Part shown: in pieces, positions 41,701 through 64,000 of the stretch
Layout: each line of letters opens with the position of its first letter
Position numbering within the stretch: the stretch's first letter is position 1
Assembly (NCBI RefSeq): GCF_030684315.1
Contig: NC_081372.1
Location: 1,367,920 to 1,431,919 of the forward strand
Length of the DNA: 64,000 nucleotides
Direction of reading: 5' to 3'
DNA from: Stegostoma tigrinum
Lineage: Eukaryota
Notes under the pieces: model-generated
Databases searched by the model: none
Seen by the model: the letters and a program-made list of their open reading frames with translations, nothing else
Told to the model about the DNA's origin: nothing
Made by a program: the position numbers and the translations under genes

Positions 41701-44700
41701 CAAGACTCCGAATGTTGTGTCTTCAGATAAAGCTGTTGGACTATAACCTGGTGTCTAGGGAAGCTCGGGAGGAGATTGCAGAGCCTTTGGCTTTGATCTT
41801 TGTCATCATTGTTGACAGGAATATTGACAGAAGACTGGAGGATAGCAATTGTTGTCCCCTTGTTCAAGAAGGGGAGGAGGGACAATCCTGGTAATTACAG
41901 ACCAGTTGTGGGTAAAGTGTTGGAAAGGATTATAAGACTTAGATGATTATAAGATTTATAATCATCTAGAAAGGAATAGTTTGATTAGAAATAGTCAACA
42001 CAGTTTTGTGAAGGGTAGGTCGTGCCTCACAAACCTTATTGAGAAGGTGACCAAACAGGTAGATGAGGGTAAACCAGTTGATGCGGTGTATATGGGTTTT
42101 AGTAAAGCATTTGATAAGGTTCCCCATGGTAGGCTAGTGCAGAAAATACGGAGGCATGGGATTGAGGGTGATTTAGTGGTTTGGATCAGAAATTAGCTAG
42201 CTGTAAGATAGAGGATGGTTGATGGGAAATTTTTATCTTGAAGTTCAGTTACTAGTGGTGTACTGAAAGGATCTGTTTTGGGGCCACTGCTATTGTTATA
42301 AGTGGCCTGGATGAGGGCGTAGAAGGATGGGTTAGTAAATTTGCAGATGACACTAAAGTCGGTGGAGTTGTGGATAGTGTGGAAGGATGTTGCAGATTAC
42401 AGAGGGACATAGATGAGCTGCAGAGATGGGCTCAGATGTCGCAAATGGAGTTTAAAGCGGAAAAGTGTGAGGTGATTCACTTTAGAAGGAGTAACAGGAA
42501 TACAGAGTGCTGGACTAACGGTAAGATTCTTGGTAGTGTGGACGGGCAGAGAGATCTCTTGGGGCCGCAGCTGTTCACTTTATATATTAATGATCTGGAT
42601 GAAGGGACTGGGGGCATTCTGGCGAAGTTTGCCGATGATACAAAGATAGGTGGACAGGCAGGTTGTACTGAGGAGGTGGGGAAGCTGCAGAAAGATTTAT
42701 ACAGTTTAGGAGAGTGGTCCAGGTAATGGCTGATGAAATTCAATGTGAGTAAATGTGAGGTTTTGCACTTGGAAAAAAGAATACAGGCATGGACTATTTT
42801 CTAAATGGTGAGAAAATTCGCAAAGCAGAAGTACAAAGGGATCTGGGAGTGTTGATCCAGGATTCTCTAAAGGTTAACTTGCATGTAGAGTCCATGATTA
42901 AGAAAGTGAATGTAATGTTGTTGTTTATCTCAAGAGGGTTGGAATATAAAAGCAACGATGTACTTCTGAGGCTTTATAAAGCTCTAGTTAGGCCCCATTT
43001 GGAATACTGTGTCCAATTTTGGGCCCCACACCTCAGGAAGGACGTACTGGCGCTGGAGCATGTCCAGCAGAGATTCTCACGGATGATCCCTGGAGTGGTA
43101 GGCCTAACATACGATGAACAGCTAAGGATCCTGGGATTGTATTCATTAGAGTTTAGAAGTTTGAGGGGAGATCTAATAGAAACTTACAAGATAATGCATG
43201 GCTTAGAAAGATTGGACGCTGGGAAGACTAGGACCCATGGGCACAGCCTTAGAATTAGAGGGGGTAAATTTAGAATGGAAATGAGACATTTCTTCAGCCA
43301 GAGAGTGGTGGGCCTGTGGAATTCATTGCCACGGAGTGCAGTGGAGGCCGGGACGTTGGATGTCTTCAAGGCAGAGATTGATAAATTCTTGATTTCTCGG
43401 AGAATTAAGGGTTACAGTGCGGGGAAGTGGAGTTGAAATGCCCATCAGCCATGATTAAATGGTGGAGTGGACCTGATGGCCCGAATGGCCTTACTCCCAC
43501 TCTGACGTCTTATGGTCTTATCTTGGTGTCCATGTGCAGAGATCCCTGAAAGTTGCCACCCAGGTTGATAGGGTTGTTAAGAAGGCATACGGTATGTTAG
43601 ATTTTATTGGTAAAGGGATTGAATTTTGGAGCCATGAGGTCATGTTGCAGCTGTACGAGAGTCTGGTGCAGCCGCACTTGGAGTATTGCATACACTTCTG
43701 GTCGCCGCATTATAGGAAGGATGTGGAAGCATTGAAAAGGGTGCAGAGGAGAGTTACCAGGATGTTGATTTAATTTACCAGATTTCAACAGTCCTTGGAT
43801 AAGCATCTGGATAATGATGGGATAGTGTAGGGGGAGGGGCTTAGATTAGTTCACAGGTCAGCACAACATCGAGGACCGAAGGGCCTGCTCTGCGCTGTAT
43901 TGTACTATGTTCTATGTTGCCTGCTCTGGAGGTAAGGTCTAATGACGAAAGCCTGAGGCTGTTTTTTTTAGAGAGAAGCAGGTTGAGGCGACTTAATCGA
44001 GACATACAAGATGATCTGAGGATTAGATAGGGTGGACAGTGAGAGCCTTTTTCCTCGGATGGTGATGGCTATCACGAGGGGGTGTAGCTTTAAATTGAAG
44101 GATGATAGATACAGGACAGATGTCAGAGGTAGGTTCTTTACTCAGAGAGTAGTAAGGGCGTGGAATGCCCTGCCTGCAACAGTAGGAGACTCGCCAACTT
44201 TAAGGGCATTTAAATGGTCAGTGGATAAACATGTGGATGATAACGGAATAGTGTCGGTTAGATGGGCTTCAGGTTGGATTCACAGGTTGGCGCAACATCG
44301 AGGGCCGAAGGGCCTGTACGACGCTGTAATGTTCTATGTTCCCTGGTATTTAATGTACGCAGGTATCACCTTTAATTGCGTGGAAATCAAATACAAGTAA
44401 TCTTGTTAATAGGTGATTTAAACTGTCCTGTGATTATACCCCTCACCCTCTCTCTCCGTGATGATGTTGCTAATATTTTCCTTCCTTCTCCAGATTCATC
44501 CAGAGCTCTACGTCGATACATCGCGAGGTGAAAAGCTAAAAATCAATATTGACACCATTTTCCCACACATGCCCTGCGCTTGTAAGTACTAATGCAAGTT
44601 CTAAAATATACTTTCCATCTCCTTGTCTTTTCTTTCACTGCTTTTCTTCGCCATTTCTTTTGAAATAAAGACCAACTCTTCCACCCCTCTGTCGCCACTG

Positions 44701-47700
44701 TGATCTCTTCGTTTTCATACCTTTCCCTTGTGAATTGGTCCCATTCTTATAGAATCATAACTTCCCTACAGTTTAAAAGCAGGCCATTTGGCCCAACGAG
44801 TCCACACATACCCTGCAAATAACATCCCTCCCAGACACACCCCATTTCCCATAGCTAACCCACATAGCCTGCACATCCCTGAACACTATGGCCAATTTAA
44901 CATGGCGTATCCACCCTAACTTGCACATCGTTGGACTGTGAGAGGAAAGCAGACCACCCAGTGGAAACCCACGCAGACACGGGGAGAATGTGCAAACTCC
45001 ACACAGGCAGTTACCCGAGGGTGGAATTGAATCTGAATCCTTGACGCTGTGAGGCAGCAGTGCTAACCTTGGAGCCACCGTGCCGCCCGAAAATCCTTAA
45101 TGTGTGTTCCTGTGCTTTCATCAGCTTTGTGTTTCTTTTCAAATCTCCTTTATGTCTGCAGGCTTTTGTTATCATCACTCCCTCTCCTTCCCACTGGCTC
45201 ACTTTCTGGTTGCTGGTACATTTACCCTGGGATCTTTATAGAAGCATTATGTAAAGCAAGTTGTTCTCTGAGCTTGCTTTCTGATATGTGATGGTGGCAG
45301 GTTGTATTGAGCCACAACCAACTCCAGAGGTAATCTGTCATCTGTCACTGACTGCAGTGAGCCAAGAAGGGTAGGACAACACTGAGCACCCTGAACTGAG
45401 TCTTTCATACCTCTTCCCCCTCCACTGCCCCGTGACCAAAAACAGATTCCAAGGTGGCATTGCATTAAAAAAAATGTCAAAATGGTAAGAGCTGTCCCTT
45501 CAGGACGTATGTGCCTTGATGTGTGTGTTATGTTTCAGTGTTAATGGTGATGCTCCATGTCCACTGACAGATCTAAGCATCGATGCGATGGATGTGGCTG
45601 GGGAGCAGCAGCTCGATGTGGAGCACAATCTGTTCAAAAAGAGACTGGACCTGGTTGGCAATGTAGTCAGTCCAGAGGTGGAGAAGCACGGTAAGCAAGG
45701 ACTGACGGGGAGCAGAGATGACTGCGACCTGTGCACATAGTTTTTTAACGTGGAGTTACAATATAACTGTTCAGATGGATGCAATGGGAACATTAATCTC
45801 TGCTAAGGATCTGTGTAAATGTTGACGTGACATGTTTGGGGTTCTAAAATAAGCTAGGTGTTGAAAAGAGAACTGTATATCTATATTTCTAACTGTTTCT
45901 GTAACTCTATTTCTATCCATTTCCCATATCGCTCGGTGATTCCATGAGAGCCAATGATCCACAACGCTTTGTATTTTTTTTATTCATTCACGGGGTGAGG
46001 GTGTCACTGGCTAAGCAGCATTTATTGCCAATCCCTAATTGCCCAGAGGGCAGTTAAGAGTCAGCCAGATTGCTGTGGGTCTGGAGTCACATGTAAGCCG
46101 GACCAGGTAGGGATGGTAGTTTCCTTTCCTAAAGGACATTAGTGAATTAGATGGGTTTTCCCGACAACCGACAATAGATTCATGGTCATCATTAGACTCT
46201 TAAATCCAGATTGAATTAATTTTTGAATTCAAATACCACCATCTACTGTGGCAGGATTCGAACCTGAGTCCCCAGAACATTATCTGGGTCTCTGGATTAG
46301 CAGTCCAGTGATAATACCACTAGGCTGTAGCCTCCCCTACTACATCAATGTGCCATTATGAGAACCTAATGTCTCAGATTTTCTTCCAAATGATTGCTCA
46401 GCATTTATGAAGCCAGTATGTAATTCATCAGCTATTCATCGAGGTTTAAGGGTAGCATTTGATCCAGTCCTATCTTCAGTCTGTGCTCATACACACTCCC
46501 TGGAGGTATTGACCATTCTGGGACTGGGTCTAATTTAAAATCAATCCAGTATTGCCCTGACTCTGGCCAAGTAACTAAACATGAATCAAAACCAGAATGT
46601 TATGCTCTGTCTGCCTCAGGATAACTTTGGAACTACTCTCTGATCCTTTGGAATTAAGGGTCATGCTGCACTTCTTTCACATTTGTTTCAATTGAGTTCT
46701 GGCTGTAATCCGTAAATTCCTGATTAATTTCCTGTGATGGTTAATAATGGTAGTCTGGTAGGTAATTTTACATTGTTGAGTGGTGGCACATCTTTGTTTC
46801 ATTCTGTTGTCTCCCCCAAGTGTTTCTTCTACCTTGGTCCATGCCTCATGTATTTCTTCATTCGTATATTCAAGTTGGAGATTGATATTGGATAAAAAGG
46901 AAGCAAGTCACAGACAGACAGGACCAAATAGCGTAACTCAGGTGGAAGATCTTATTGAATGGCAGAGTAACCCAATGGTCAATTGCTGCTTCTATTTTTG
47001 ATTCTCTTTGAGTCTGTTCCATGTGCCATCTCTCTTGTAGAATAATTTGGCCCATTGAATCGATGCTGGCTCCCCAAAACAATCCAGTCAGCCACAATCC
47101 CTCTGGACTCCGTCCCATAGTCTCAGCACATTAATTTCTCTGAAGTGCCTATCCATTTTCCCTTTGAAATCATTGAAGGTTTCAGCTCCCAGGCAGTGTT
47201 CCAGGTCATTACCAGTCGCTGTGTAAAAATGCTGTTCGTCACATCCCTGCCCAGCATCACTTGACCAAAAACCTTAAATCTATATTTCCTGGTCCTTATA
47301 CCACCAACTGGTGGAGCAACTTTTCTTTGTCTAACTAATCCATCATAATCTCATACACTTCAGTTAAATCTCTCTTTAATCTTCTTTGCTCCAAGGAGAA
47401 CCGCCCCAACTTCTCCTTAGAACCCTATCGCTAAAATCCTACTTGCCTGGAACCATTCTGGTAAATCTCTCAAGTACTCTTGGGGATCTTCCGTTCTTTG
47501 TAAAGTGCAGTGACCAGACCTGGATGCAGCACTAATTGGCCTAACAGCTTTATGTAGGTTCAGCTGCTGTCTTTCAATGTGTCTTCCTCCCGTTTCTCTC
47601 TGTCTCTGCATTCCATATTGTTGCTTTTTGCTCTCTTTCCCCCTGTTCCATATGTTATTTCTCTCTCCCAATATGTACTTTATGTGCTGTGCCTCTCTAG

Positions 47701-50700
47701 ATCTGGGTCTGTATTCTGTGTCCGCTGTCTCCAGACCCACGTTTTGTGTTTTGTTTTCCCCCTTCTCCCTTGCTGAGCCCATATTCCTTGTGTTGTCTCT
47801 ATCTGTTTCAGAGTTGGGAAAACAGGAGGAGGTGTTCAATTCCACAAAGCTGGACCCAGACCGATGTGAGAGCTGTTATGGGGCAGAATCTGAGGACATG
47901 AAGTGAGTGGCACTGATCAGTTCTCGGCATAGTTTGAATGAAAGGAAGCCTTCTTTGAGCTGAAACCCAAAAGGATCACAGCTCCAGACCCTGGGGTCAA
48001 GGGGAGTTACAGCACACCCAGGTTGGGAAGGAACATTACCATGTTAACCAGCCCCCCTCAATTACCATCCTGCACTCCCCGGTATCAGACAATGTGATAG
48101 TGCTTTGCTATGTTTCCTTCAGTTGATACCCGCCAACTGCACCTGTCACTGTTCTGTCACTCCCCAGTTAGACCCACTTCACTGATCTTTCTCCTTCACT
48201 GTGCATCGGCTTCTGTGTCCAATTCCCCTTTTGGAAGTTCTTGAATCTCTCTCTACCACATTCTGAGGTGGTGATTTTAAGATTGTTTTCCTTCTATTTT
48301 GCCAATTACTTATCCCTGTTCTTTGGTTACTGACCCTCCAATCAGTAAAATCAATGTCTGTCTTCTTATCAAAACCCCTCAGAATTTTGAACACCTTTAT
48401 GAAATCTCCATGAATCTCCTTTGCTGTCAGGAAAATAGTCCCAAAGCGTTTAGTCTGTCAGTGTAACTCATTGGGACTGTTTTGATAAATCTTGTAGCCT
48501 GAATACTGAAGACCAACTTTTAATGTATATTAAGAAGAACAATTGTCCCAACATTGAGGTTGAGGGATACCACTTTCCCCCAGTCTATGAAGCAGGTTTT
48601 TACTCTAACCCTGGAATCTGAAAAACAGCTCTCAACTTCACACTCCACTTTCTGTCTCTTGACCAAGTGTTTATTTGTGATAGCACTGTTGTTTCGTTTT
48701 GCTAACAAGTCTAATATGTCACACATATTAGCACACACTGCTGTCATTGGCCATTGTTAGTTCTTTGGCCATCCCTAAATGTCCTGGAGAATGTGGTGGT
48801 GAGCTACTTTTATGAGCCAATGCAGTCCATGCTTTGCATTGTCCACTGACTTTGAAGTTGTGCTCCCTGTTCCCAAGTCCAAGTGATGTTTAATATAACA
48901 AAAAAGCATCCGAATATTGACTTCTGGACTCCTGTACCCCTCCCCAAGTCAGAACAATATTTGTTCACCAAACTGTCTATTCCCTTAGCCAATCCTGTTC
49001 CAAGTCGCCATCATCCATTTGGTCCTGTTTGCTTTAGTCTGAGTAAATCTGTATGTATTACTTTATTTAAACCTGTTCTGAAAGTCTACATATATATAAA
49101 ACATCTGCTTGTCACTCAGTGACAAGCCGTATCCTTCATGAAGACAGATGCAGTGATCTGCCCAAATGATGTTCTGGAATGTGCCCCAGGGGAATTGGAG
49201 AGAGATATCCCCCTCCACCTGGAACTGCTGATTTGCAAACTCTGGCTATTGAGAACTCTTGTGTCATTACTTCCCTGTGCAACAGATACCTAGAGTAACG
49301 CATGCTGATTGGTCCATATAGATGCTGCAACACGTGTGCTGATGTACGTGAGGCCTACAGACGGAAAGGCTGGGCATTTAAGAATGTAGACACCATTGAG
49401 CAATGCATGAGGGAAGGATTCACTCAGAAGCTGCAGGAACAGAAGAATGAGGGCTGCCAGGTGTATGGATTCCTGGAGGTCAATAAAGTGAGTCTGCGGT
49501 TGAATGTTGGATTCCAGGGATAGTGGTTGTGGTAAGACATTGGTTATCGGTGACAATTTTTGTGGTGTCTGTGGTTAGCTGTTGGTTATTGGCAATGGGA
49601 GGGGTCTGTCGTTAGATGCCCATTGCATGTTTTTAAACTGATTCCTATCTTTTCATTTCTTGTTAGGTGGCGGGGAATTTCCATTTTGCTCCTGGAAAAA
49701 GTTTTCAGCAGTCACATGTCCATGGTAAGAGAGAGTATTGAATCCTCCCAAAGGGATTTTGGGTCAAAAATGTGAGTGGGTATGTTTGTAAAGGGCTGGG
49801 GGCTGGGGTAAAGTTTGGAAGGGGGGTTTGAAACAATTATTCAAGGAAGGGCAACAAATTACAGCTATTGACTGCCTCAAGAAAGTATCCCAAGGAGCTT
49901 TACAGCATTGCAACACCTGAAGCACATGAGCCAAAGGAGGATGAATTCAAAACAACCCAAATCAAGGATTAGCAAGAGAATTTCAGAGCCTTAGGCTGGT
50001 AAGCATGTTGATCAATGTATAGCAATTAAAATTGCTAATACACCAGAGGCTGGGCTTGAAGGAACGTTGAGTGTTGTCAGTTCAGAAGAGAAATGAGAGA
50101 TAAAAGGGGCTGTACTGTGAATGTATTTGAACACAAAGCTGAGTTTTATCAAATTGTGTCGTCATTAGTTTGTGAGCTTGTGTAGGTCAATGAGCTCGGG
50201 GAATGGGACAACAGGACTCTAAGGGCTAGCATATGAGCACAAATGAGGATATTACAAGGTGAACTTAGCTGGGGTTAGGGATGAACATTTTACAAAAATT
50301 GAACCTTGATAGTGGATTGTGTGGATTTGGAATCTGTGCTCATGGTCAGATAGATTGCATTGTCTAGTTCAGCCTCTCAGTACCAGATTGAGGGGAGAAT
50401 CAGCATCTATTGAACAGACTTTGTGCTGGACACTGAAGACAATGACTTTCTCAACACTTAATTTGGAAATGTCTGACCTGGTATTGCACGTCATGAGAAT
50501 GAGAAATGAGATGGAGAAGGGGTCAAGAGAAGTCATGCTGAGCTACAGCTGGCTGATGTCAGCGTACATTGGAATCTGGTGTGCTTTTGGAGGAGATGAG
50601 GAGAAATGTCTTTACCCAGAGAGTGGGAAACCCATGGAATACGGTTGAGGCCAAAATATTGAATGTTATCAAGAGGAGTTAGATGTAATTCTTAGGACTA

Positions 50701-53700
50701 AAGGAATCAAAGGGTATGGGGTGAAAGCAGGAACAGGGAACGAAAGGTCAGCCCATGATAAGATAGAATTGCTGGGCTGAATGGCCCACTCCTGCTATTT
50801 TCTATGTTTCATATAGCTGCCAGGCATATGTCAATGAGGAATGACAGGGGCCAAAGGATTTGTCTTGAAGGATATCAGCAGTTACTGAGGGAAACCATAG
50901 CAAGACATTTTCTGGCTGTGACTGAATAGAAAATAAGGGGCAGCTGAGAACAGTCCCACCAGCTGAGGGTTGGTCTGAACACATTCATATGTTGCAGACA
51001 GGATGAGAAAGGGTAATTTATATAGTCGTGTAGGATTCCAACAGAGCCGTTTGATACTGTGGCAAGGACAGAATCAGGCGAGGTCAGGGAAAAATGGATT
51101 TGGATTAATGAGATGACAATACAGTGAAAGACCGGAGATGAAGGGGAAGCTGATGATGGGCTGGTAATTTGCGAGAACAGAAGGTCATTGATGGATGTTT
51201 GAAGAGACAGGTGGTGATGGCATAATATTTAAGAAAGGGATAGTATTTGAGCAAAGAGAACTGTTGACAATATTGATTAACATGGGCAGTAGGAGGGGAG
51301 AGTTTCAGGGCTAAGACAGGGCAGTTTTGGTTAACATCTGTTCCTGTGGGTTATTGGAAGGGAGGGACCAACAAAAAGCTGAACTAATGTTTTCTGTCCT
51401 TATAACTAAGGACCCCAGAATTAGGGGCAACTTTCAAGCAGAGGGTGGTGTGAATATGGAATGAATTGCCAGAGGAAGTGGAGGAGTCTGGTACAATTCA
51501 ACATTTAAAAGGCATCTGCATGGGTACATGAATAGGAAGGGTTCAAAGGGATATGGGCCAAATGCTGGCAAATGGGATGAGGTTAATTTAGATATCTGGT
51601 CGGTATGGACGAGTTGGACTAAAGGGTCTGTTTTAGTGCTGTACATCTCCATGCGTGTATGATAGTGGATAGTGGAGTGGCAGGTTTACAAAGACAACTT
51701 ACAGCGAAGTGGCGCCAGTCATTGTCTTTGCATTCTTGACCAATCCTGAAGTACTGAATAGCTTTAGCAGAACCAAAGTGTTACATGTCCAGCCAGATCT
51801 CTTGCTAAATGGCCACGCCAGTTACCCACCTTGCTTCCAAAACTCTGTTCTCTTAGACTTTAGGGAGTGGAGATGGTAGCAGAGTAGCAAGCAAATTTAA
51901 AAAGAACAGATGTTTAACTGGGGACAAGCATCAGGTGAGGGTGCGATTGAACCTATCAACAGCCACAAGTAAAGCTTCAAATGGTGAGCTAAAGGCTGAG
52001 AACTAGAACTATTTTCCTCAGATTTCACACATGAGGAACTGAATTGGAAACAGAAAACTGCAGAATGATCTGTGGGGAAGGATGATCTTATCTGTGATAC
52101 AGACTAATTGTGGACTCAGCAAAAGCTCTGTCTGATTCTGAATGTTTTCCAGTATTTTTACACCTGCGCAAATCTACCTGCATTCTCCGAGATACCGTTG
52201 AATTTTCTGTTTAATGCCCAATGATGCTTCTCTACTTTTAAAAATTGTTTCTTTTCTTCCTTGCAGTCCATGCTGTTGAGAGTAAGTGACTAATTCTCGA
52301 TTCTGTTCCCTCTATGTGCCTTTAATAGTTCTCCACATCTTAAAACCTGATTTGCTGATATGCCTGTTAAACACTATCTTCTGCTGAAGCCCATTTGCTC
52401 TGTCTAGTTCCTCGCCATGCTTTGCATTAATTATGACCATGTTGCATGGCTCTGTAGAATGTAATGGGATTTCAGTAAACCAAATGGACAAGTGCGTGAA
52501 TTCTCTGAGTCACTGACTTGAAAATCACCATTATGAACGTCAACAATTCTGTCCTGCAAACTAACAAGATTACTTATGTAATACTGTAGTTCTGGGACAC
52601 ATCTGCTCATGTATAACACTGGGGTACAGTACTGGTGGGAACAGATATGTTGTGGTCTAACACTGGGGTACAGTACAAGTGGAGATGAGTGTGCCATGAT
52701 ATAATCCTGTGGTGCTATACTAGTGAGGATAAGTCTATCACTAAGGCATAGGTACAAGACTGGTGGAGACCAGTCTGCCACTATCTAAGGAAAGATGTGC
52801 TGGCCTTGGAAGGGGTCCAGAAGTGGTTTACAACCATGATCCTGAGGATGAAGGGCTTGTCATGTGAGGAGCGTTTAAGGACTCTAGGTCTGTACTAGAT
52901 GGGGTTTAGACAGATGACTTGGTATCTGATTTAAATGTACAGAATACAGAGAAGCCTGGAAAAAGTGGACATGGAGAAGACTGGTTCCACTAGTAGGAGA
53001 GACTTTGGCCAAAGGGCACAACCCAAAAGTGAAGGGATGACCCTTTAGAACTGAGATGAAGAATTTCTTCAGGAAGTGGGTGTTGAATCTGTGGCTGTCA
53101 TTGCAACAGAGGACTGTTCTGGCCAAGTCACTAAGTGTGTTTAAGACAGAGATAGATAGTTTCGTGATTTGAAAGGGGATCAAGGATTATGGGGAAAAGG
53201 CAGGAAAATGGGGTTGAGAAATGTATCAGCCATCAAAGGGTGGAGCAGACTTGCTGGGCTTAATGGCCTAATTCTGCTCTTATATCTCTGGTCTTGTGGC
53301 CTTTTAACACAATTACAGTACTGGTGGTTACAGGTCTGTTGTGAATCATACTGGGATACAGTACTGGTAGGTACAAGTTACATTGGAAATGGTATTTCTG
53401 TAAGATGTTAAATTAACGTCAAATCTATATTTTTCATTCATTCCAATAATGAATGTCGCTGATTGGGCCAGTTTTTAATGCCTGTCCCCAGCTGTTCTTG
53501 AGAAGGTAGTGGTCAGCTAACTTCTTGAACTGTTGTACTCCATGTGGTACCAGTACGCCCACAGTGCTGTTCAGGAATTGCAGGATTTTGACCCAGCAAC
53601 AGTGAAAGAAAGGTAATATATTTCCAACTCAGGATGGTGAGTGGTTTGGAGGGGAATTTGCAGGGGACGGTGTTCCAATGTATCTGCTCTCCTTGACCTC

Positions 53701-56700
53701 TTAGATGGAAGTTGGTTGTGGGTTTGGCAAGTGCCAAGTCATGAGTCTTGCCAAGTTTTTGCAGGACATCTTATGGATAGTACAGTGATAATGGGAACTG
53801 CAGATGCTGGGGAATCCAAGATAACAAAGTGTGAAGCTGGGTGAACACAGCAGGTCAAGCAGCATCTCAGGAGCTCCTGAGATGCTGCTTGGCCTGCTGT
53901 GTTCATCCAGCTTCACACTTTGTTATTATGGATAGTACACACTGCTGCCACGAAGTGACAACAGTAGAGGGAGTGGATGCTTATGAATATGGTGTCAGTT
54001 AAGTGGGCTGCTTTGTCCTGGATGGTGTTGAGCTTCTTGAGCGTTGTTATAGCTGCCCCCATCCAGGCAAGTGGGGAGTATTCATCACACTCCTGACTTG
54101 TGCCTTGCAGATGGTGGACAGGCTTTGGGGATTCGGGAGATAAATTAGCCACTGCAGGATTCCTAGCGTCTGACCTGTTCTTTTGTATTACTACTCTAAG
54201 CCGCTGAGCATTAGTGCCCTATGGACCTCTGTATCTGAAAGAGAACTGGGGGTGCTCGAAATCAGAAATAAACACAAAAATTGCTGGGAAAACTCAGCAG
54301 GTCTGGCAGCGTCAGCGAACCACAGAGTTAATGTTTCAGGTCCAGTAACTTTCTTCTAAAGAAAAAGAGTTCTTTCCACAGACCTGCTATTTGTAAACAC
54401 ACTTTCTCTGAATATTTACACCTGGGCATGGAGATGGACAGCCAGAATCTGATTAACTGTGCAGAAGATTTAATTACAATTCTTGTGTTTTATAGATTAT
54501 ATCTTTTATTCCTAGTCATTCACATTTTTTCCTTGGGATGTGGGTATCACTGGCGAGGCTAGCATTTATTACCCATTCCTAATTGTTTTGAGGTGGTGAT
54601 GGTGAGCTGCCTTCTTGAACCACTGCAGTTGATGTGTAGGTACACCCACGATACAGTAAGGGTTTGATCTCCAGGATTTTGACTCAGCAGCTTTTGGTCT
54701 CCTGTAACTGCAACATCATCCTTTGTGCTGAATTTGTCATCAGCCAGTGGAAAGTTTTCCATCATTGACTTCAGTTTAATACATTGGGCAATATTACTCA
54801 CTGTTGCCTCTGGAATTCAATTATTTTCCTCTACGTTTGGATTGAAGTATGGCTGTAATGAGGTCTGGAGCTAACTGGTTGTGGCAAAACCCATTGAACA
54901 TCTTGAATACACCTGCTTGAATCCTCTTTTCATCACTGCCAATCACAATTAACTGTGGACTGGTGGGGAAGTGATTGGCAAATAGGAATTGTCCTGCTTT
55001 TTGCACACATGTCATTTGTGGGCAGTTTTCTACGTTTTGGTGGTTGCTGATGTTATGGCTGTTCTGGAATATGTTGACTCGAAGTACAGCTAGTTAATGG
55101 GCACCTATCTTTACTATAGCTAGGATTAAGTTCAGGCCCATAGCCATTTCCTGCTATCATGTGGATTGAAGAGAATTTGGTGGAGACTGACATCTGAGAT
55201 GGTGTGCAGCTCAGGAAAGGCCAAGATGTATCTTCATCTCAACTGGTGACGATTGTAAATACCATAACCATGTCTTTTTGCACTGGCTTGCTGACATTCC
55301 TGTCAAGGAGAGGATGTTCCATTGAACCATGGTTAATCCTTCTGCTTAATGGTGATGTGAGGAATATGTGTGGTTCAATATTCTATTGCGCTGACGACCT
55401 CTGGTGCCTTGTGGATGTGCACTTTGTTAGATCTGTTCTGAATCTATCCTATTTAGCACATTGTCATAATGAGGATGCCCTCCATCATATCCCAATGTGA
55501 TTTTATTTGTTTATTTTCTGATTCTGTTGCTTGATTAGTCCATGGGTCAGTTCTCTGAAATTTGACACAAGGCAGGGTGCCCCTTTGTTATGTCTGATGC
55601 TCAGGTTGATGCTGGGTATTCATCTTGTATCATTCTTTTAGGTTGTAATAGTGGTTTGGTACAACTGAGTGAGAATTAAAGGTTGCATTTCTGTGGGTCT
55701 GGTGTCATACATGGACCCTACCTGGTACAAACATGAGATTTCTGTCTATGAAGGGATTTGCTGAAGGAGAACTGTAGATATATGGTCACCGTTACTTACA
55801 CTACATTTCTATTCCAGAATTATTCAATTAACTGAATTTAAATTCCCCAGCTCCCATGGCAGAATTTGAACTTGTGCCTGGATTGTTACCCCTGGCTATT
55901 GGTTTAGTAGTTTACTAAAAGCACCTCTATGCAACTATTTCCACTGTAAATTTTTTTTTAAGAAGTCATGTTATTAACTCCTGTTTCTAATTGTTTTCTC
56001 CCCTTTTTCTGTCAGTTCATGACCTGCAAACTTTTGGATTGGACAATGTAGGTATTACTGCAATCTCGTGGAATGCTTTTTATTAAACTATTAAATACTG
56101 ATTCATGTTTCACCTTGGACTGTTAAATCTCAACTCAGATTAGACTAGTACAATATTTCTTTTGCTATGTGATGAAATTTAAAAACATTTAAAAAGGTTT
56201 AAACTGTCTGTACAAGTAGCACAGATGGAAGCAGAAAGTTGCAAAAGGACACATGACTTTTTTAAACATGGCAAAGTGAAAGATCATTCATTTTGGATCA
56301 AAAATGAAGTCAAGGTGCAGATGATCTGGGATTACGATCAGGTTAATTTTTAGAATGGTGAAGGAGACCCTCACACATCAAGCTGTCAGCTTTTATCTAA
56401 TGTCTCGAACTCAATACCACCTGTGCAGGGTGACATGGTGGCTCAGTGGTTAGCACTGCTGCCTCATTCTGCCAGGGATTCGAGTTTGATTCCAGCTTTG
56501 GGTGACTGTCTGTGTGGAGTTTGCACATACTTGCCCCATGTCTGTGTGGGTTTCCTCCAGTAGCTGTGGTTTCTTCCCACCGTTCAAAGATGTGCAGGTT
56601 AGGCACATTGGCTATGTTAAATTGCCCAAAGTGTTGAGGGATGTGCAAGCTAGGTAGATTAGCCATGGGAAATGGGGGATCAGAGGGACAAGGTAGAGGG

Positions 56701-57285
56701 TGGAATGTTCTTCAGAGGGTTGATGTGAACTTTGGGCCAAACGGCCTGCTTCCACACTGTACAGAGATTCTATGATTGGCTTTTGAGAATTCTTTTCAAA
56801 CAGAGTATACAGTTGATGATATGGAATGAAGAATCACTGCTTGTGACATGCTTCACACCTGTATGTCATCAATTCAATACTGGAATTTACTCACTATTCT
56901 TGAACAACTTGCATTAAATACCACATTCCAGGATGTTTCACAGGAGGTGACTTTTGAACAGAATTGATACCAAGCCACCTGTCATTAGGCAGGAATCCAA
57001 AAAATCTTAAGTGCTAAGTTTATGGGGGAATTCCAGAGCTTAAAGCCTAACCACCTAAAGTCGAGTCTGCAGTTGATACAGTGATTAAATGGAGCGCTAT
57101 ACAGGTTTATGGGATATTCACTGGGACACATCTAGAAAAGCATCCTGTTGTGAAATATATTTTTTGAGCAACTTCTCTTCCCCTTCAGATAAACATGACT
57201 CATTATATCAGACACCTCTCCTTTGGGAGCGACTATCCAGGAATCGTGAATCCTCTGGATGGAAGTAATATCACAGCACAACAAG
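38614..57285 (+). CDS. ERGIC3: ER-Golgi intermediate compartment protein 3, partial (exons 1-9 plus microexon; 3' exons outside the window)
   Basis: Exons 38614-38701, 39877-39947, 44494-44581, 45571-45690, 47812-47902, 49322-49487, 49667-49724, [52267-52281], 56016-56047 and 57189-57285 join in phase: [28 protein letters not shown]...CESCYGAE...CCNTC...GNFHFAPG...NPLDG. Confidence 0.97.
38705..39740 (+). repeat. ~1-kb G-run tandem repeat (GGGGGGACGGGGGGGGTGGTGTA-like units) in ERGIC3 intron 1
   Basis: Directly visible; dozens of G5-G10 tracts. Confidence 0.95.
39877..39947 (+). CDS. ERGIC3: ERGIC3 exon 2 (TM1)
   Basis: [23 protein letters not shown]. Confidence 0.96.
40284..41752 (+). mobile_element. 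Penelope-like element of a fourth family with an inverted 5' segment (40284-40587 on the minus strand)
   Basis: The minus part reads SLYRK...[21 protein letters not shown]...RVPFVVQ (RT C-terminal region); the plus part reads GAEKL...CKTCQ...[11 protein letters not shown] (GIY-YIG); it ends in a CTGTTGGACTATAACCTGGTGT terminus. Confidence 0.85.
41755..44340 (+). mobile_element. CR1 LINE with two nested CR1 insertions (~42560-43520 and ~43770-43915)
   Basis: ORFs 41981, 42370, 42789, 43534 and 44032 carry CR1 RT motifs ([23 protein letters not shown]); the host sequence resumes after each insertion. Confidence 0.9.
44494..44581 (+). CDS. ERGIC3: ERGIC3 exon 3
   Basis: [29 protein letters not shown]; donor GTAAGT. 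Confidence 0.96.
44750..45088 (-). mobile_element. HE1/V-SINE-like tRNA-derived SINE
   Basis: The minus strand has a GGCACGGTGGC...GGTTAGCACTGCTGCCTCACAGC head, the GTGTGGAGTTTGCACATTCTCCCCGTGTCTGCGTGGGTTTCC V-SINE core and a CR1-like tail. Confidence 0.85.
45571..45690 (+). CDS. ERGIC3: ERGIC3 exon 4
   Basis: [26 protein letters not shown]...EKH. Confidence 0.97.
47812..47902 (+). CDS. ERGIC3: ERGIC3 exon 5
   Basis: [29 protein letters not shown]. Confidence 0.96.
49322..49487 (+). CDS. ERGIC3: ERGIC3 exon 6
   Basis: [19 protein letters not shown]...[13 protein letters not shown]. Confidence 0.96.
49667..49724 (+). CDS. ERGIC3: ERGIC3 exon 7
   Basis: [19 protein letters not shown]. Confidence 0.97.
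52267..52281 (+). CDS. ERGIC3: ERGIC3 15-nt alternative microexon
   Basis: Polypyrimidine tract + TGCAG|TCCATGCTGTTGAGA|GTAAGT; frame-preserving; gives ...HVH-VHAVEI-HDLQ..., as in the longer mammalian isoform. Confidence 0.9.
52770..53300 (+). mobile_element. CR1 LINE 3' fragment
   Basis: CTAAGGAAAGATGTGCTGGCCTTGGA...GGGCTTAATGGCCTAATTCTGCTC CR1 pattern. Confidence 0.75.
53785..53925. mobile_element. Short palindromic Penelope-derived element with 14-bp TSD, nested in a LINE
   Basis: Inverted arms centred near 53874; TTATGGATAGTACA at 53771-53784 and 53926-53939. Confidence 0.85.
56016..56047 (+). CDS. ERGIC3: ERGIC3 exon 8
   Basis: [10 protein letters not shown]; CAG acceptor and GTAGGT donor. 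Confidence 0.95.
56428..56776 (+). mobile_element. HE1/V-SINE-like SINE
   Basis: GGTGGCTCAGTGGTTAGCACTGCTGCCTCA A-box head, V-SINE core and CR1-like tail. Confidence 0.85.
57189..57285 (+). CDS. ERGIC3: ERGIC3 exon 9
   Basis: [32 protein letters not shown]; donor G|GTAAGT. Confidence 0.97.
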
Positions 57286-57544
57286 GTAAGTGGGACAGTC
57301 TTACAGGAAAACACAAGGTTGCACTGAAAGAATACCATTTGCAAATTTAAGACTCTTGTTTCAAGTCACAAAATCCACACTATAATGTTCCTTATTATTA
57401 TATCATTGAAAATTCAGTTTACTGAAGGTTAAATAGATAGCAGTATGACTTTGGGTATTGCTACCCCACTTGACCTTAAAGTTGCTGATTCATTCACCAG
57501 GAATAAGTCATCACTTCAGAGAATGAGAGGGGAACATACCCACT

Positions 57545-58660
57545 GAAGTCACATGGAGTCCAGGGTGTGCTAGCTAGATGGATAAAAAAACTGGCTGGGC
57601 AACAGGAGACAGAGGGTAGTAATGGAAGGGGGTTTCTCAAATTGGAGACCCGTGACCAGTGGTGTTCCACAGGGATCTGTGCTGGGACCACTGTTGTTTG
57701 TTGATAGACGTCATGATTTGGAGGAAGGTACAGACGGTCTGATTAGCAAGTTTGCAGATGACATGAAGATTGGTGCTGTAGCAGATAGTGAAGGGGACTA
57801 TCAGATTACAGCAGAATATAGATAGATTGGAGAGTTGGGCAGATAAATGGCAGATGGAGTTCAATACGGGCAAATGTGAGGTGATGCATTTAGGAAGATC
57901 TAATTCAAGACCGAACTATACGGTAAATGGAAAAGTCCTGGGGAAAATTGATGAACAGAGAGATCTGTGTGTTCAGGTCCATTGTTCCCTGAAGGTGGCA
58001 ACGCAAGTCGATAGAGTGGTCAAGAAGGCATATGGCATGCTTTCCTTCATCGGACAGGGTGTTGAGTACAAGAGTTGGCAGGTCATATTACAGTTGTATA
58101 GGACTTTGGTTTGGCCACATTTAGAGTACTGTGTACAGTTCTGGTCGCCACATTACCAAAAGGATGTGGATGCTTTGGACAGGGTGCAGAGGTGGTTCAC
58201 CAGGATGTTGCCTGGTATGGAGGGTGCTAGCTATGAAGAAAGGTTGAGTAGATTAGGATTATTTTCATTAGAAAGATGGAGATTGAGGGGGGGACCTGAT
58301 TGAGATCTACAAAACCATGAGGGGTATAGACAGGGTGGATAGCAAAAAGCTTTTTCCCAGATTGGGGGACTCAATTACTTGGGGTCATGAGTTCAAAGTG
58401 AGAGGAGGAAAGTTTAAAGGAGCTATGCGTGGTAAGTTCTTTTCGCAGAGAGTGGTGGGTGCCTGGAATGCGTTACTGGCGGAGGTGGTAGACGCAGACA
58501 CGGTAGTGTCTTTTAAGATGTATCTGGACAGGTACATGGATGGACAGGGATACAGACCCTTAGAAAATAGATTTAAAGGTTTAGAAAGAGGATCTCAATT
58601 GGCACAGGCTTGGAGGGCTGAAGGGCCTGTTCCTGTGCTGTAATTTTCTTTGTTCTTTGA
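57545..58660 (+). mobile_element. Young CR1 LINE 3' fragment, same subfamily as 80-935
   Basis: ORFs 57622, 57788 and 58317 (SGVPQGSVLGP, KFADD, WQMEFN); translation nearly identical to the minus-strand copy at the window start. Confidence 0.92.
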
Positions 58661-59929
58661 TTATCATGGCTTACACTGAATAAACTCACACCCACTCTTA
58701 GAACTAGTGAAGAATGGTCAGAAACACAAAATTAGCCAATTCTTTCTCATCCCACTCCTACTCACCTTGATTAATTACCCCAACACATAAGCCGGGTTAG
58801 AATGCATTTTTTGTTGGATGGCGCGATGGTGAGTTCTTTACATCTGAATAACAGAGCTGTTTATTGCTTCTTCTGAGGCTAAAGACATTACAACCACAAC
58901 AGAACTTAGGTGCAACATAGAATCAGCATTTAATAGGTTATTAAAAAGTAACTGGAGTGGGTACAAGCCCAACTGCCTGAGAATCAAATAGCAAAGGAAC
59001 ACTTTCAGTCACTGTCCTTTGCTCATTTCCCCATATTCATTTTTGAATGTTACTGTTGAATCTGTTTTCACTGTGCTGTCACAACTCAGTTTGGTCATCA
59101 GCCTTACTACTAATTCAAGATTTTTCCTTATTTACTTGACCAAACTCCTTTATTGTGGAATACAACCATCCTTATTCCAAAGAGAACAATCCCAGACTCT
59201 CCACATACGTACAGCCATTCCCATATAGCTCCACACATGCGCACAATAAACTTTTGGATGTTCTTCCTAGATTGTGTTGCCCAAAATTGAACACCTTGAA
59301 CCAGATGTTTTGTTTTATTAAGCCAAAGATTTTATGTGCTTTTTAACAGCATTCTCAACTTTTCCTCCTGGTCCATAGATTTCTGTCCATGCACCCCCTT
59401 TAAATTTTTTTTTCCACGTATTCATTCACGAGATGAGGACATTGCTGACCAGGCAGCATTTGTTGCCATTTAGTTAAGACTGCCTGTAATTTTCCCATTA
59501 AAATGCTCTGCTTCACATTTTAGAAGGATGGCAGCAGACTGCTGAAAATGGATCGACACAAATACAAAACTAAAATGATGTGTGGATACTGGAGAAATTC
59601 AAAAGAAGTCTGGCAGCATCTGGGGAGAAAGAAAGACAGCTTCAGCGCAAGAGTCATATCAGACAGTGTTTTTCTGTCCGCAGATCCTGCCAGACTGTTC
59701 TCCAGCACTTTGTTTTACTTCAGATTTCCAGCATCTACACTTTGTTTTTCCATGTCCTCCTAAATATCACACAGCAAAGGCTTCCCCCACTGGATACATT
59801 TCACTTATACTTCGCTTATGTCCTCTGCTCCTGTTTGTGCTACTAGTAAAGACCTTTTAGAAGTTCACCTACTGGTGGAGAAACATCTCAGTCCATTTTC
59901 AAAACTTGAAGCAACATTAAATCATACAC

Positions 59930-59935
59930 TTTAAT
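59930..59935 (-). promoter_or_regulatory. Candidate ROMO1 polyadenylation signal ATTAAA
   Basis: TTTAAT on + (ATTAAA on -) ~100 nt after the ROMO1 stop. Confidence 0.55.
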
Positions 59936-60034
59936 TTCCATTATTGTACAGCTTGTAATCAGGGGGGCAGAGCCAGTTGGTACATTATCTGCAATATTTG
60001 AAATTTCAACAGAAAGGAAGAAAAAAGAATTGTG

Positions 60035-60143
60035 TTAGCATCTGATTCCCATTCCAATTGCCATGAAGGTTCCAAACGTGCCTCCGCTCTGCATCATGGT
60101 CTTCCCCACACCACCCAGCAGCTCTCGGCCTCTCAGCCCCAAC
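60035..60143 (-). CDS. ROMO1: ROMO1 last coding exon
   Basis: Acceptor TTTGGTTTCCAG; [38 protein letters not shown]. Confidence 0.97.
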
Positions 60144-61229
60144 CTGGAAACCAAATAATGCAATAGTTACTTTGTTGTGGCTGCGAAATGGATAGTAAAA
60201 TCAAAATTCTTGAATACACTTTTCCTAATTCACTGAGGCTAAGGTATTCAAACAGTATAGGTCAAACTCAATTTCAGGGAACAGACGAAACATGTCAGCA
60301 TTTCCACAGTACAGCAATGAAACCAAATTTGTCAGTAGTTACAGCCTGGCTGAGTTACTGTTTCTTTCTGATTAGTGAGATTGTAGACTTGAGCTTAGCT
60401 GTTCCCTCCAATGCTGCACTGGTGGTCTTTTATTTCAATATAACATTAACATGAGGACAACTCCATACATTGCATTGAGAAGAACTTGGTGTTAGCAATA
60501 TCTTCACATGAAATAATAAATAGGAACTGGAGACCCCTTGAGTCTACTTTGCCACTTGCTAAGTTCATGGCTAATATACTTCAAGTCAGCCTTTCACAGG
60601 TACAGCAGTGGATCATACTCATTGTGAGTGTAGTCAGATGCTTAGTAATATCAAAAATCTGTAACCACTTTTACAAACATGATTACTGATCCATAGTCGA
60701 ATCTTTGTTGAATACTTTTGAACTTACGTGATGGAACATTAATCGCGAATGTCTTAACAACTAGTGGTTCAGAAAGTTTTGCTGGGTTAATATTTTATTC
60801 CAACTATGATATCTCTCAGCAGCAAATAATCAGGGTGGTGCCTTTACCGTTCTCAAATTCCTGTGTCCTCCAGAAATCTGAACATCCCACTATTCAGTAG
60901 TATTGTCTAGATTCTCATTGACATATCCGAGCTGGTTATAGTGCCTGTGCAACTGACAGAGCTAACTGATATCAATGGGGGGGGGGGGGGGGGGGGGGGG
61001 CATCTGCATTGGCTCATCTTTGATATTTGGGAATATACATGCAATTACGTTGGTGTTTCCTTTTAACAAAGGTGGAACAGTGAAGTGTTCATACTGACCT
61101 GAGGCATGAGAAACTGCCAAAAAGTGCACCAGCTGCCATGCCAACTGCACAGCCCATCATGAAGCCCATTTTAACCCTGTCAAAGCAGCTGGGCTGTGAC
61201 TGCCCATACGGTCCCACTGTGACTGGCAT
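60035..61229 (-). CDS. ROMO1: Reactive oxygen species modulator 1 (Mgr2/ROMO1 family), 79 aa, two coding exons
   Basis: Exons 61229-61099 and 60143-60035 on the minus strand translate to [79 protein letters not shown]-stop; GT-AG intron in phase 2. Confidence 0.98.
61099..61229 (-). CDS. ROMO1: ROMO1 first coding exon
   Basis: Acceptor TCTTTCTCTGTCTAG directly before the ATG; donor AG|GTCAGT. Confidence 0.97.
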
Positions 61230-63499
61230 CTAGACAGAGAAAGACAGTGATTAAAGAACACCACAACTGATTACTAGCCCATTCTTCTTCCCCCAGTGCT
61301 GTGTGTTATACAGTCATACAGCATGGAAGCAAACCCTTTGGTCCAACGAACCCTCTTGCCTGTGTTTGGCCATATGCACCCCCCCCCCCCCCCCCCCCTT
61401 TCCTAGTCACGCAGTTATCAAATGTCTTTTAAATGTTGCAACTGGACCTGCGTCCACAACTTCCTCTGGCAGTTCATTCCGTGTACTAATCATTATCCTT
61501 TTTAAAACGTTTTCCTCTCACCTTAAAAATATTACCCCGAGTTTTGAAAGCACCCCCCCCCCCCCACCACCACCACCACTTCAGCAAAAGACTCTGCTCT
61601 TCACCTTATCTATGCCTCTCATTTTTATAAATGTCTATAAGATCACCCCTTAATCTTATTCAGCCATTGACATCAATTCCTGTTTTAACAAAATTGGAAC
61701 TACAACTGACAAGATTCCTCCAATCCCTTGCCTTCAACTCTGCTGTTGGTTGGTTTACCATGTTATCTGACAGCTCCTCATCTGGAGCAAAGAAATAACT
61801 ATTTAGAAGATCCATCTCATTTTATGCTGCAATTTCAGCAATTACTATGATTCTAGTTTGTTCAGCCCCATTTATGTTGACAACGATTTTCAAAACCTAA
61901 TGTCAACATAGAACATTACAGCACAGTACAGGCCCTTCAGCCCTCGATGTTGTGCCGACCTGTCATACTGATCTCAAGCCCATCTAACCTACACTATTCC
62001 ATGTACGTCCATATGCTTATCCAATGATGACTTAAATGTACCTAAAGTTGGCAAATCTACTACCGTTGCAGGCAAAGCGTTCCATTCCCTTACTACTCTC
62101 CGAGTAAAGTGTAATATATAGAATTTTGAACTGGTATCAAACAATTTTTAGTTTTAACCCACAGCAGACAGCAAACAAGTCACTTACATCCCTCCGACTC
62201 ATTCCCACAGAGAATATGGGAATGTAACTTGATTAGCAATCCAGAGGTTAAAGTTCTGATGACCTAGATTCAAATTCACACAATGGCACAGCCTTGATTG
62301 ACAAAAGCTCAGAACTGAAAACTAGCGTCAGGAATGGTAACCATGAAATACTTTTAAATGTTGTGTTTCATGATGTAGGTATGGTTGGCTGGCCAGCATT
62401 TATTGTCAACCCTAACTGCCCTGGAAGAAGGGATGGCAAGTGCCTTCTTGACCAGTTACAGGCCTTGAGTTGTAGGTGCACCGACAGTGCAGTTAAGAAC
62501 AGATTTGCAGAATTTCAACCCAGCGACACCAAAGGAACAGTGATATATTTCCAAGTCCCAAGTGGAGTGGATGTTGGAGCTGCTGCTCTTGCCCTAGGTG
62601 GGAGACATCATGCATGACAGATGTTGTCTAAGAAGCCATATGAGTTATTGCACTGCATCTTCTAGATGTTCACTGCTGCTACTGTGTATTGGTGAAGGGT
62701 GTGAATGTTGAAAGTGTTAGATGGGATGCCAATAAAGTGGACTACTTTGTCCTGAGTGGTATTAAACTTCTCACATAAGGAGCACTCATTCAGGTGAGTG
62801 GGTAGTACTACATCACATTTCTGATGCATGCCTTGTAGATAATGGTAGGCATTAGGGAGATGAGTTATTTGCCAGAATTCCTAGCTTCTGACCTGCTGTG
62901 TAGCCACAATATTTATATGTCTGATCCAGTTCAGCTTCTGATCAGTGTTAACCCCTCAGGATATTGGAGATTCGGCATTGGAAATGCCATTGAACATCAA
63001 GGGACAGAGGTTAGACTCTCTTGCTGAAGATAGTCATTGTCTGGTGTGATTGTTACTTTGTTGATGGTAAATGGGACTAAATTAAGTTAGGATATCTGGT
63101 CCGTATTGGATGAGTTGGACTGAAGGATCTGTTGCTATGCTGTACAGCTCTATGACTGTAATGGTCAGCTCCAAACTCGATGTTGTCCAGGTCTTGTTGC
63201 ATTTGGACACGGATTACTTCAGTACCTGAGGAGTTACAAATGGTGCCGAAAATTGCATAATCGACAAACATCCCCAATTCTGACCTTACGATGAAGCAGT
63301 TGGTAATGATGACTGGGCTTGGGACACAAAACCCTGAAGAACCAGGGAACAGTGGAAATATCGGTACCCGAGAGCCACGAGTCCTGGGTTCAAGTCCCAC
63401 CTGTTCTAGGGGTGATTCATAACAAAAACACCTGAAGAACGGCTGCATGATGCCCAAGAGCCGAGACCAAAGCCATCTTCCCCTCTCGGTCAGACAGGG

Positions 63500-64000
63500 C
63501 CTCGATGGCGAGGTCGGTTACTCTTGGACAAACTGTAACGAGGTGAGGAGCCGGATGAACTCTGAGAGTGCAGCTGTATCAGCAGCGTGTAACACCACGG
63601 CAGAGCCAGGCCGGAGTGTTGTCAGGGCCCTCACTCTAATAAGCTCCTGGTCCTCTTTCCCGTTCCCTCTGCCCGCCGCTTACCCCCGCAACCCCCCTGT
63701 CCGGCTCCTCCCGCCGCCTGGGGCCTCACTCACCGTCAACCCCGCACTCGGACTCGGCGTCGGCCCTGGCCCCTCAGACAACCATCTCACCTTCGACCAC
63801 CCGCCCCTCCCCCACGGGAAGTTGCGTGCCAGCCCGGGCCGGAAGTGCGTGTGGAGCAGTCACGTGCCTGTCCACGGGTCATCAACCCGGAAGAGCGCGG
63901 TGTGGTGGGGAGGCCGTGCAGTCTGTGCGAGCAGAAGTCGGGGTGACCGGGCCTGGAGGAACACGGCAGGTCAGGGAATGGCCAGGCGCCGCTCTTCGCA
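63500..64000. promoter_or_regulatory. CpG-island promoter, likely bidirectional (ROMO1 non-coding exon 1 on the minus strand)
   Basis: CpG-rich; ETS CCGGAAGT ~63839 and CCGGAAG ~63887; E-box CACGTG at 63861; GC box; minus-strand donors after 63791, 63734 and 63684; plus-strand donor CAG|GTCAGG after 63969. Confidence 0.75.

Follow-up and report, generated by a model that had tools for sequence, protein, structure and literature searches.

In the shark Stegostoma tigrinum, a three-exon ROMO1 gene lies on the opposite strand within intron 9 of an intact ERGIC3 gene. In our judgment it is quite probable that this arrangement was inherited from the ancestor of jawed vertebrates, and that it was undone in tetrapods by a move of ROMO1, at the level of DNA, to a place beside NFS1. 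The window, which is the whole stretch of DNA analysed, is 64,000 nucleotides long. Extended coordinates continue past its end and equal the position on the contig (G000:C23) minus 1367919.

The host gene

The ERGIC3 model has 13 exons, every intron is GT-AG, and the open frame of 382 amino acids is closed by a single terminal stop (Table 1). It contains the Pfam domains ERGIC_N and COPIIcoated_ERV. Over its full length the model shares 85-93% identity with chondrichthyan ERGIC3 proteins P0004-P0007, and residues 1-382 align to P0005, P0007, P0038 and P0109. Exon 6 gave 7 matches at 98% identity, named as chondrichthyan ERGIC3, and no sequence match in PDB; of the five paralog loci tested, all on other contigs, three reach only 36-47%.

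Table 1. Positions of the ERGIC3 and ROMO1 features in window or extended coordinates
Feature	Position	Strand	Basis or remark
ERGIC3 exons 1-3, coding	38614-38701, 39877-39947, 44494-44581	plus	exon model, GT-AG
ERGIC3 exons 4-6, coding	45571-45690, 47812-47902, 49322-49487	plus	exon model, GT-AG
ERGIC3 exons 7-9, coding	49667-49724, 56016-56047, 57189-57285	plus	exon model, GT-AG
ERGIC3 intron 9, host of ROMO1	57286-65723 (57286-64000 in window)	plus	8,438 nt, largest of the gene
Dispersed repeat, LINE-like (label inferred)	57586-58660, approximate	strandless	between ERGIC3 exon 9 and ROMO1 3' end
ROMO1 exon 3	59918-60143	minus	coding 60143-60035 including stop; 3' UTR to about 59918
ROMO1 exon 2, 131 nt	61099-61229	minus	starts exactly at ATG; codons 1-43 plus 2 nt
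ROMO1 exon 1, non-coding	63684-63767	minus	spliced to exon 2 in runs X1, X3; loose end in X4; all organism A
CpG island	63361-64000 in window, to about 64080	strandless	likely ROMO1 promoter
ERGIC3 exons 10, 11	extended 65724-65788, 67513-67649	plus	beyond window
ERGIC3 exons 12, 13	extended 67871-67926, 74074-74153 (stop)	plus	beyond window

A preliminary description of this DNA had seen a normal donor closing exon 9 at 57285 and no exon 10 in the remainder of the window. The donor is indeed there (GTAAGT, exon 57189-57285). A tblastn search of 57286-65723 on both strands found no ERGIC3-like coding piece (best E 0.26), and exon 10 therefore lies outside the window, as had been said, 1.7 kb beyond its end. 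The same search disposes of the idea that a terminal exon had been overlooked in intron 9, as does the reading frame, since read-through past exon 9 meets a stop after about 21 codons. ERGIC3 is intact and not broken, because exons 10-13, in the right order and likewise on the plus strand, complete the open frame. Intron 9 also carries a repeat that is 90% identical to window positions 86-936, with weaker copies elsewhere and very deep repeat cover.

Structure and identity of ROMO1

The minus strand of intron 9 holds an intact ROMO1 of 79 amino acids, just as the preliminary description proposed: the pieces 61229-61099 (131 nt) and 60143-60035 (109 nt) are joined by a GT-AG splice into an open frame. 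In a profile search both match Pfam Romo1 (PF10247), exon 2 with E 1.2e-10 over profile positions 1-30 and exon 3 with E 1.8e-11 over positions 32-66, at scores of 42.0 and 44.7 bits against a curated cut-off of 27.6. As each of these pieces of just 43 and 35 codons matches the family, the frame is not due to chance. Exon 2 is also similar to Mgr2 chain 9j9b_D (E 6e-8). By analogy with the family, the product would be located and function in the inner mitochondrial membrane. The nested gene is the only intact ROMO1 copy found in this genome. A processed copy on contig C2 ends at 59918; this retrocopy lacks the 5' end and so keeps no record of exon 1.

At the 3' side the polyA signal reported earlier is present, with the qualification that the nearest one, at about 59935, has the variant form ATTAAA and that AATAAA hexamers come only further on (about 59319, 59154 and 58865). 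The 5' end reaches at least about 63767, and the donor of exon 1 is probably at 63684 (GTAAGC), with a second candidate at 63734 (GTGAGT). A CpG island was correctly noticed at this side (about 63361-64080). Its GC content is 0.64 and its CpG observed/expected ratio is 0.74 over 63400-64020. It contains, as motif matches only, ETS-type CCGGAAG at 63839 and 63887 and an E-box at 63861; a motif search of the island gave no TATA match. The island is likely to be the promoter of ROMO1. Among the joints listed, none links a divergent plus-strand exon at the island to ERGIC3 exon 10. Extended positions 63815-64336 have no cover in three of three RNA-like runs, whose contigs cannot demonstrate absence.

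Splicing across the nested gene

Seven of 18 runs guessed to be RNA ("RNA?") and one of four unlabelled runs were compared with the locus; none of those listed is recorded outright as RNA. The RNA-like runs come from related species, and their contigs carry no strand, start or level. ERGIC3 exons 9 and 10 are joined across ROMO1 in five of the seven, which represent three organisms and four studies of relatives. The join is a GT..AG joint in X1, X3 and X6, and appears as loose ends matching the end of exon 9 in X4 and X13; it is absent from the contigs of X2 and X7, both from one study. The joint between ROMO1 exons 2 and 3 is found in four of four RNA-like runs (contigs, related species), and joins of both genes occur within one run in four of the seven (X1, X3, X6 and X4). 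The DNA-like run X19 may come from the very sample that was assembled. Two of its contigs, which overlap and show 1 and 0 differences, tile extended 63380-65981, from ROMO1 intron 1 to ERGIC3 exon 10.

ROMO1 (about 59918-63767) thus lies wholly within one ERGIC3 intron on the opposite strand. The exon model and the joins in relatives' contigs support a nested antisense gene pair, as first suggested, in which ERGIC3 transcription has to traverse the ROMO1 gene and its putative CpG-island promoter. The following picture can be proposed. ERGIC3 would be transcribed through the whole ROMO1 unit, which would leave with intron 9, judging from the relatives' contigs. ROMO1 would be driven in the opposite direction, probably from its own CpG island, and would be spliced and ended inside intron 9; the splices are seen, and the end is predicted. 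In antisense nesting the opposite orientation keeps each gene from reading the splice sites and polyA signals of its partner. Convergent polymerase traffic over about 3.9 kb is likely to be tolerated and not regulatory, and the analysis gave no sign of transcriptional interference or of a regulatory effect of the crossing.

Gene order in other vertebrates

The preliminary description set this arrangement against human, where the two genes are separate, and the implied surprise is not supported. In zebrafish, romo1 (ENSDARG00000038076, chr6:50402401-50405513) is annotated within ergic3 (ENSDARG00000038074, chr6:50393828-50414978; PMC5690287, supplement gene table). These are the same genes, and by coordinates alone the romo1 span is fully contained. 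It begins 1.2 kb past an exon sized like exon 7, a position compatible with intron 9 but likewise with introns 7, 8 or 10 (assembly unstated). The zebrafish counterpart is therefore already in gene tables, visible there only as gene coordinates. Titles and abstracts in the literature searched, outside which most subscription journals fall, include none on ROMO1-in-ERGIC3 nesting. Among metagenome contigs, 33 ERGIC3 relatives (51-79% identity) gave no ROMO1 match (0/33), most being too short or intronless.

The wider neighbourhood in the shark (MTSS1-like, CYC1, ERGIC3, MYC-like) matches that of teleosts: mtss1 is near ergic3 and romo1 in zebrafish, ergic3, romo1, mych and mtss1 are listed at one SNP in salmon, and Cyc1 and Ergic3 share a scaffold in fugu. 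NFS1 and RBM39 are about 8 Mb from ERGIC3 in the shark genome, and a tblastn search of the 50 kb between them found no ROMO1 remnant (best E 1.2). Zebrafish nfs1 is likewise elsewhere and without romo1, 3 kb from rbm39a on chr11 (PMC5690287 supplement).

Tetrapods differ. Mouse Romo1 also has three exons and an antisense partner, and its exon 3 encodes Ile45-Cys79, so that the coding intron sits before residue 45 as in the shark; there, however, the partner is Nfs1, which overlaps Romo1 exon 1, whereas here it is a host intron (PMC13236801). Gene lists, in list order and not by coordinates, give PHF20, RBM39, ROMO1, NFS1, CPNE1, RBM12 and ERGIC3 for turkey and rbm12, nfs1 and romo1 for Xenopus. 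Frog ergic3 was not among the rows listed (PMC12599972), and the salmon and X. laevis supplement files searched gave no coordinate rows for the genes.

Origin and fate of the nesting

Since zebrafish romo1 is also inside ergic3, the tetrapod arrangement is likely the derived one. Nesting is likely ancestral to jawed vertebrates because zebrafish is nested, the neighbours match teleosts and NFS1 is elsewhere without ROMO1 in both; this polarity rests on one chondrichthyan and one teleost against tetrapods. As the coding intron is at the same codon in mouse, the un-nesting was likely a DNA-level event, a duplication or transposition after which the nested copy was lost, and not retroposition.

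Could the arrangement be an artefact, with ERGIC3 mis-assembled or broken? We give this almost no credence. No support for it was found beyond the fact that no single contig covers the whole of intron 9, X19 covering only the 3' 2.6 kb. The split by rearrangement once considered for ERGIC3, or an inversion, is ruled out by exons 10-13, which lie in order on one strand in an extension without N, and by the X19 tiling, and zebrafish has the same nesting annotated. It could also be supposed that a place beside NFS1 was ancestral for ROMO1, or that both copies were, and that cartilaginous and ray-finned fishes each acquired the nesting in ERGIC3 by an insertion of their own. The zebrafish comparison, being one of span containment, would fit separate entries, and nesting was more frequent than un-nesting in human and mouse (56 versus 4 events; PMC8467205). 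But two insertions into one gene would be required, no ROMO1 lies between NFS1 and RBM39 in either shark or zebrafish, and the CYC1/MTSS1/MYC-like neighbourhood is common to shark and teleosts; a two-copy ancestor with reciprocal loss would differ from ancestral nesting in timing only. We regard this alternative as improbable.

More speculative is the suggestion that transcription starting at the ROMO1 promoter lowers ERGIC3 output or cuts its transcripts short, so that isoforms ending within intron 9 arise, and that this conflict expelled ROMO1 in tetrapods. The geometry imposes convergent traffic, and intron 9 has nine plus-strand AATAAA/ATTAAA hexamers (counted without a chance control). 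Two of the seven chondrichthyan ERGIC3 models, P0003 and P0008, diverge from the normal sequence immediately beyond exon 9, a possible hint that transcripts terminate early in intron 9. Among the 120 proteins listed, the match of these shark models ends with exon 9 or slightly beyond it, as does that of one alignment segment of P0001, a duplicated teleost model, and no named tetrapod model stops there. Yet normal exon 9-10 joins co-occur with ROMO1 joins in those four of seven RNA-like runs, and the P0003 and P0008 tails are mutually unrelated and find no match at this locus. Other ERGIC3 models break off where exon 6, 7 or 10 ends, so truncated models of this kind amount to common annotation noise. 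In mammals, nested pairs have no additional divergence in expression (PMC8467205). Such regulation we consider unlikely. The fuller scenario, in which an essential housekeeping ROMO1, in ERGIC3 intron 9 before the split of sharks and bony fishes, cut short some ERGIC3 transcripts and in early tetrapods left, introns included, for a new antisense overlap with NFS1, driven by interference, appears doubtful to the same degree.

Significance

Nested genes make up 4.3-8.7% of vertebrate genes, and 74-78% of simple nested pairs are on opposite strands, with 673 pairs in zebrafish (PMC8467205). The present pair resembles them in having one internal gene on the opposite strand of a host intron. It differs in that the internal genes of that survey are for the most part young, tissue-specific duplicates (PMC8467205), whereas ROMO1 is the sole intact copy found here, carries introns of its own and, in mouse, is essential (PMC13236801). 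The LRRTM genes in alpha-catenin genes offer another opposite-strand nesting across jawed vertebrates with lineage-specific break-up (Uvarov 2014, PMC3933685); in our case both genes persist in tetrapods, and ROMO1 apparently moved. The structure is thus real and ordinary in kind, its one uncommon feature being the probable later un-nesting, an event that the survey found to be rare (PMC8467205).

For work on fishes the nesting suggests that deletion or silencing of romo1 can affect ergic3, and vice versa; the mouse Romo1 knockout had to spare Nfs1 (PMC13236801). Two broadly needed genes have likely stood head-on in one stretch of DNA since early jawed vertebrates, which makes this a worked case of such an arrangement. 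The inner gene then likely left with its introns, in the direction that is rare in the human and mouse survey (4 versus 56; PMC8467205).

ROMO1 within an intact ERGIC3

ROMO1 lies nested, in antisense orientation, in intron 9 of ERGIC3, and the host gene is intact. The two minus-strand coding pieces of ROMO1 join through a GT-AG intron into an open frame of 79 aa, and each separately matches the Pfam family Romo1 (PF10247) above its curated cut-off, which confirms the intact antisense gene of the preliminary description. The polyA signal and the CpG-island first exon claimed with it are also present: the signal closest to the gene is the variant ATTAAA at about 59935, and a CpG island covers the 5' region. 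Exon 2 has the ATG start at its first base and is preceded by a pyrimidine-rich acceptor. The ROMO1 introns carry long G or C homopolymer runs (60977-61001, 61380-61398 and 61553-61566), which may be prone to sequencing error.

A search of the genome with the PF10247 profile gave four matches, namely the two nested exons and two overlapping pieces of a processed pseudogene on contig C2. In this copy 61099 is fused directly to 60143, and the copy ends at the position equivalent to 59918, about 12 nt beyond ATTAAA; no poly(A) tail was seen. It therefore supports, from the same genome, both the ROMO1 splice and the proximal 3' end.

It had also been suggested that ERGIC3, for which no exon 10 was seen in the window, might be split here by rearrangement. 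Exon 10 is indeed outside the window, and no ERGIC3-like piece occurs on either strand of intron 9 (8,438 nt, the largest of the gene), which speaks against an overlooked terminal exon in 57286-59900. A split is not borne out: Pfam matching across the genome placed a 3' piece of ERGIC3 on the same strand, 3.5 kb beyond the window end, exons 10-13 all lie downstream on that strand, and the model has 12 of 12 introns GT-AG and an open frame of 382 aa. The chondrichthyan homologues P0004-P0007 align with it over its length at 85-93% identity. Exon 6 is 98% identical to seven named proteins (sharks, a ray or a chimaera) versus 87-91% for the other 113 listed matches, the named ones being from bony vertebrates; on this ground the genome is treated as that of a cartilaginous fish. 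In some homologues the protein has 5 more residues (387-388 aa), which would be those of a neural microexon in intron 7 (49725-56015); a strict scan of that intron gave no convincing candidate.

Features of the locus and related loci (the window is G000:C23:1367920-1431919, plus strand; positions above 64000 are window-extended, i.e. genome position minus 1367919; C2 and C23 are contigs of the same genome)
Feature	Position	Strand	Remarks
MTSS1-like 3' exons	L041:7640-8303	+	upstream of ERGIC3
CYC1	about 16900-31700	+	directly upstream of ERGIC3; two exons confirmed by Pfam
CpG island, CYC1 region	16-17.5 kb
ROMO1 coding exons	61229-61099, 60143-60035	-
CpG island, ROMO1	about 63361-64080
ERGIC3 exon 10	65724-65788	+
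ERGIC3 exon 11	67513-67649	+
ERGIC3 exon 12	67871-67926	+
ERGIC3 exon 13	74074-74153	+
MYC-family gene	L035/L036, 122700-124900	+	downstream of ERGIC3
CPNE1/RBM12-like	G000:C23:2945349-3021038	-	exons resembling copine genes; open RRM frame of 897 aa; labels inferred
NFS1-like exons	C23 9.28-9.30 Mb		family matches
RBM39-like exons	C23 9.35-9.36 Mb		family matches
Processed ROMO1 pseudogene	G000:C2:119870880-119871215		77-90% identical; intronless, frameshift, 5'-truncated

Transcript joins in relatives

The run data are contigs, which carry no strand, start or level, from seven of 18 sequencing runs presumed, not recorded, to be RNA and one of four unlabelled runs. The intron sequences of organism A diverge from the genome by about 5-8%, which identifies these runs as coming from relatives. 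The join of ERGIC3 exons 9 and 10 (GT..AG, skipping 8,438 nt) is found in five of the seven presumed RNA runs examined. X1, X3 and X6 show it as a joint; in X4 and X13 the letters preceding exon 10 match the last part of exon 9, and the ones that follow match exon 11. None was found in the contigs of X2 or X7, both from one study. ROMO1 exons 2 and 3 are joined in four of four runs, exon 2 is joined to the CpG island in X1, X3 and X4, and joins of both genes occur within one run in four of seven. Judged from the 15 diverged letters of this join, the exon 1 donor would be at 63684; a second good donor sequence is at 63734. Two overlapping contigs of run X19, which may be the assembly's own sample, cover 63380-65981 with 1 and 0 differences.

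One X3 contig of 1,338 nt contains ROMO1 exons 2-3 and extends to about 59030, beyond two AATAAA sites. It possibly represents a longer 3' UTR form (minus strand, 59918 on to about 59030), though contigs cannot show ends; ROMO1 contigs of the other runs stop near 59950.

The geometry makes transcriptional interference between the two genes possible. Against fully neutral coexistence, two of seven chondrichthyan ERGIC3 models (the shark models P0003 and P0008) break off after exon 9 and carry unrelated tails. Since other ERGIC3 models stop at other exon borders, these ends are likelier to be noise than real termination. The shark model P0006 has 25 additional aa where exon 9 meets exon 10; neither this insert nor the two tails map to the ERGIC3 locus of this genome.

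ROMO1 and its neighbours in other vertebrates

The gene order here is MTSS1-like, CYC1, ERGIC3 with ROMO1 inside, and MYC-like, where the first and last labels rest on WH2 and HLH matches plus known motifs. The MYC-family gene is likely the mych orthologue. The MTSS1-like and MYC-like neighbours are those of salmon, in which ergic3, romo1, mych and mtss1 are listed at one SNP, with nearby genes taken within +/-100 kb (PMC12794147). In zebrafish (GRCz10), as here, romo1 (chr6:50402401-50405513) is within ergic3 (50393828-50414978; PMC5690287, supplementary file 8); mtss1 is 167 kb from ergic3, and nfs1 and rbm39a adjoin each other on chr11 (PMC5690287). Zebrafish ergic3 is on the plus strand and has exons of 166 and 58 nt that end at 50401189 (PMC6047831). 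Exons 6 and 7 of this genome have these same lengths, which puts romo1 downstream of exon 7 if the assemblies of both papers agree. Fugu has Cyc1 and Ergic3 on one scaffold, with romo not among the genes listed there (PMC5749833).

In mouse, by contrast, the partner of Romo1 is not the host of an intron but Nfs1, which overlaps its exon 1 on the opposite strand; exon 3 codes residues 45-79, and loss of Romo1 is embryonic lethal (PMC13236801). A turkey list gives the order PHF20, RBM39, ROMO1, NFS1, CPNE1, RBM12, ERGIC3 (PMC8470100), and a Xenopus list, from which genomic order may be read, gives cpne1, slc25a19, rbm12, nfs1, romo1 (PMC12599972). Human ROMO1 and ERGIC3 are in one 470-kb clump, which speaks of clump membership only (PMC8513692). 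Members of this tetrapod cluster are linked but dispersed on C23 here: the stretch labelled CPNE1/RBM12-like by inference lies 1.5 Mb away from ERGIC3 and shares its contig with NFS1 and RBM39. The NFS1 and RBM39 family matches fall below whole-protein cut-offs because they were matched one exon at a time; no trace of ROMO1 was found in the 50 kb between them.

Evolutionary interpretation

The nesting and the intact host are established here, as are the splicing of both genes in relatives, the containment of romo1 in zebrafish ergic3 and another partner of Romo1 in mouse. Of vertebrate protein-coding genes, 4.3-8.7% are nested; antisense pairs account for three quarters of the simple nested pairs, and un-nesting was rare in human and mouse, with 4 events versus 56 of nesting (PMC8467205). 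Cases of ancient opposite-strand nesting that later broke up are already known (PMC3933685). The nesting of ROMO1 in ERGIC3 is already implicit in zebrafish annotation. It was not found in the titles and abstracts searched, while subscription journals and further supplements could hold it; those passages naming both genes that were read are gene lists. ROMO1 would have become nested in ERGIC3 once, before the chondrichthyan/bony fish split, and would have left it once, before the frog/amniote split. The exit was likely a move at the DNA level, because the coding intron persists in mouse, at an unchanged codon position, and would have been lost in a retrocopy such as that on C2. The nesting is real and a member of a common kind; the one uncommon feature of this pair is its likely un-nesting in tetrapods.
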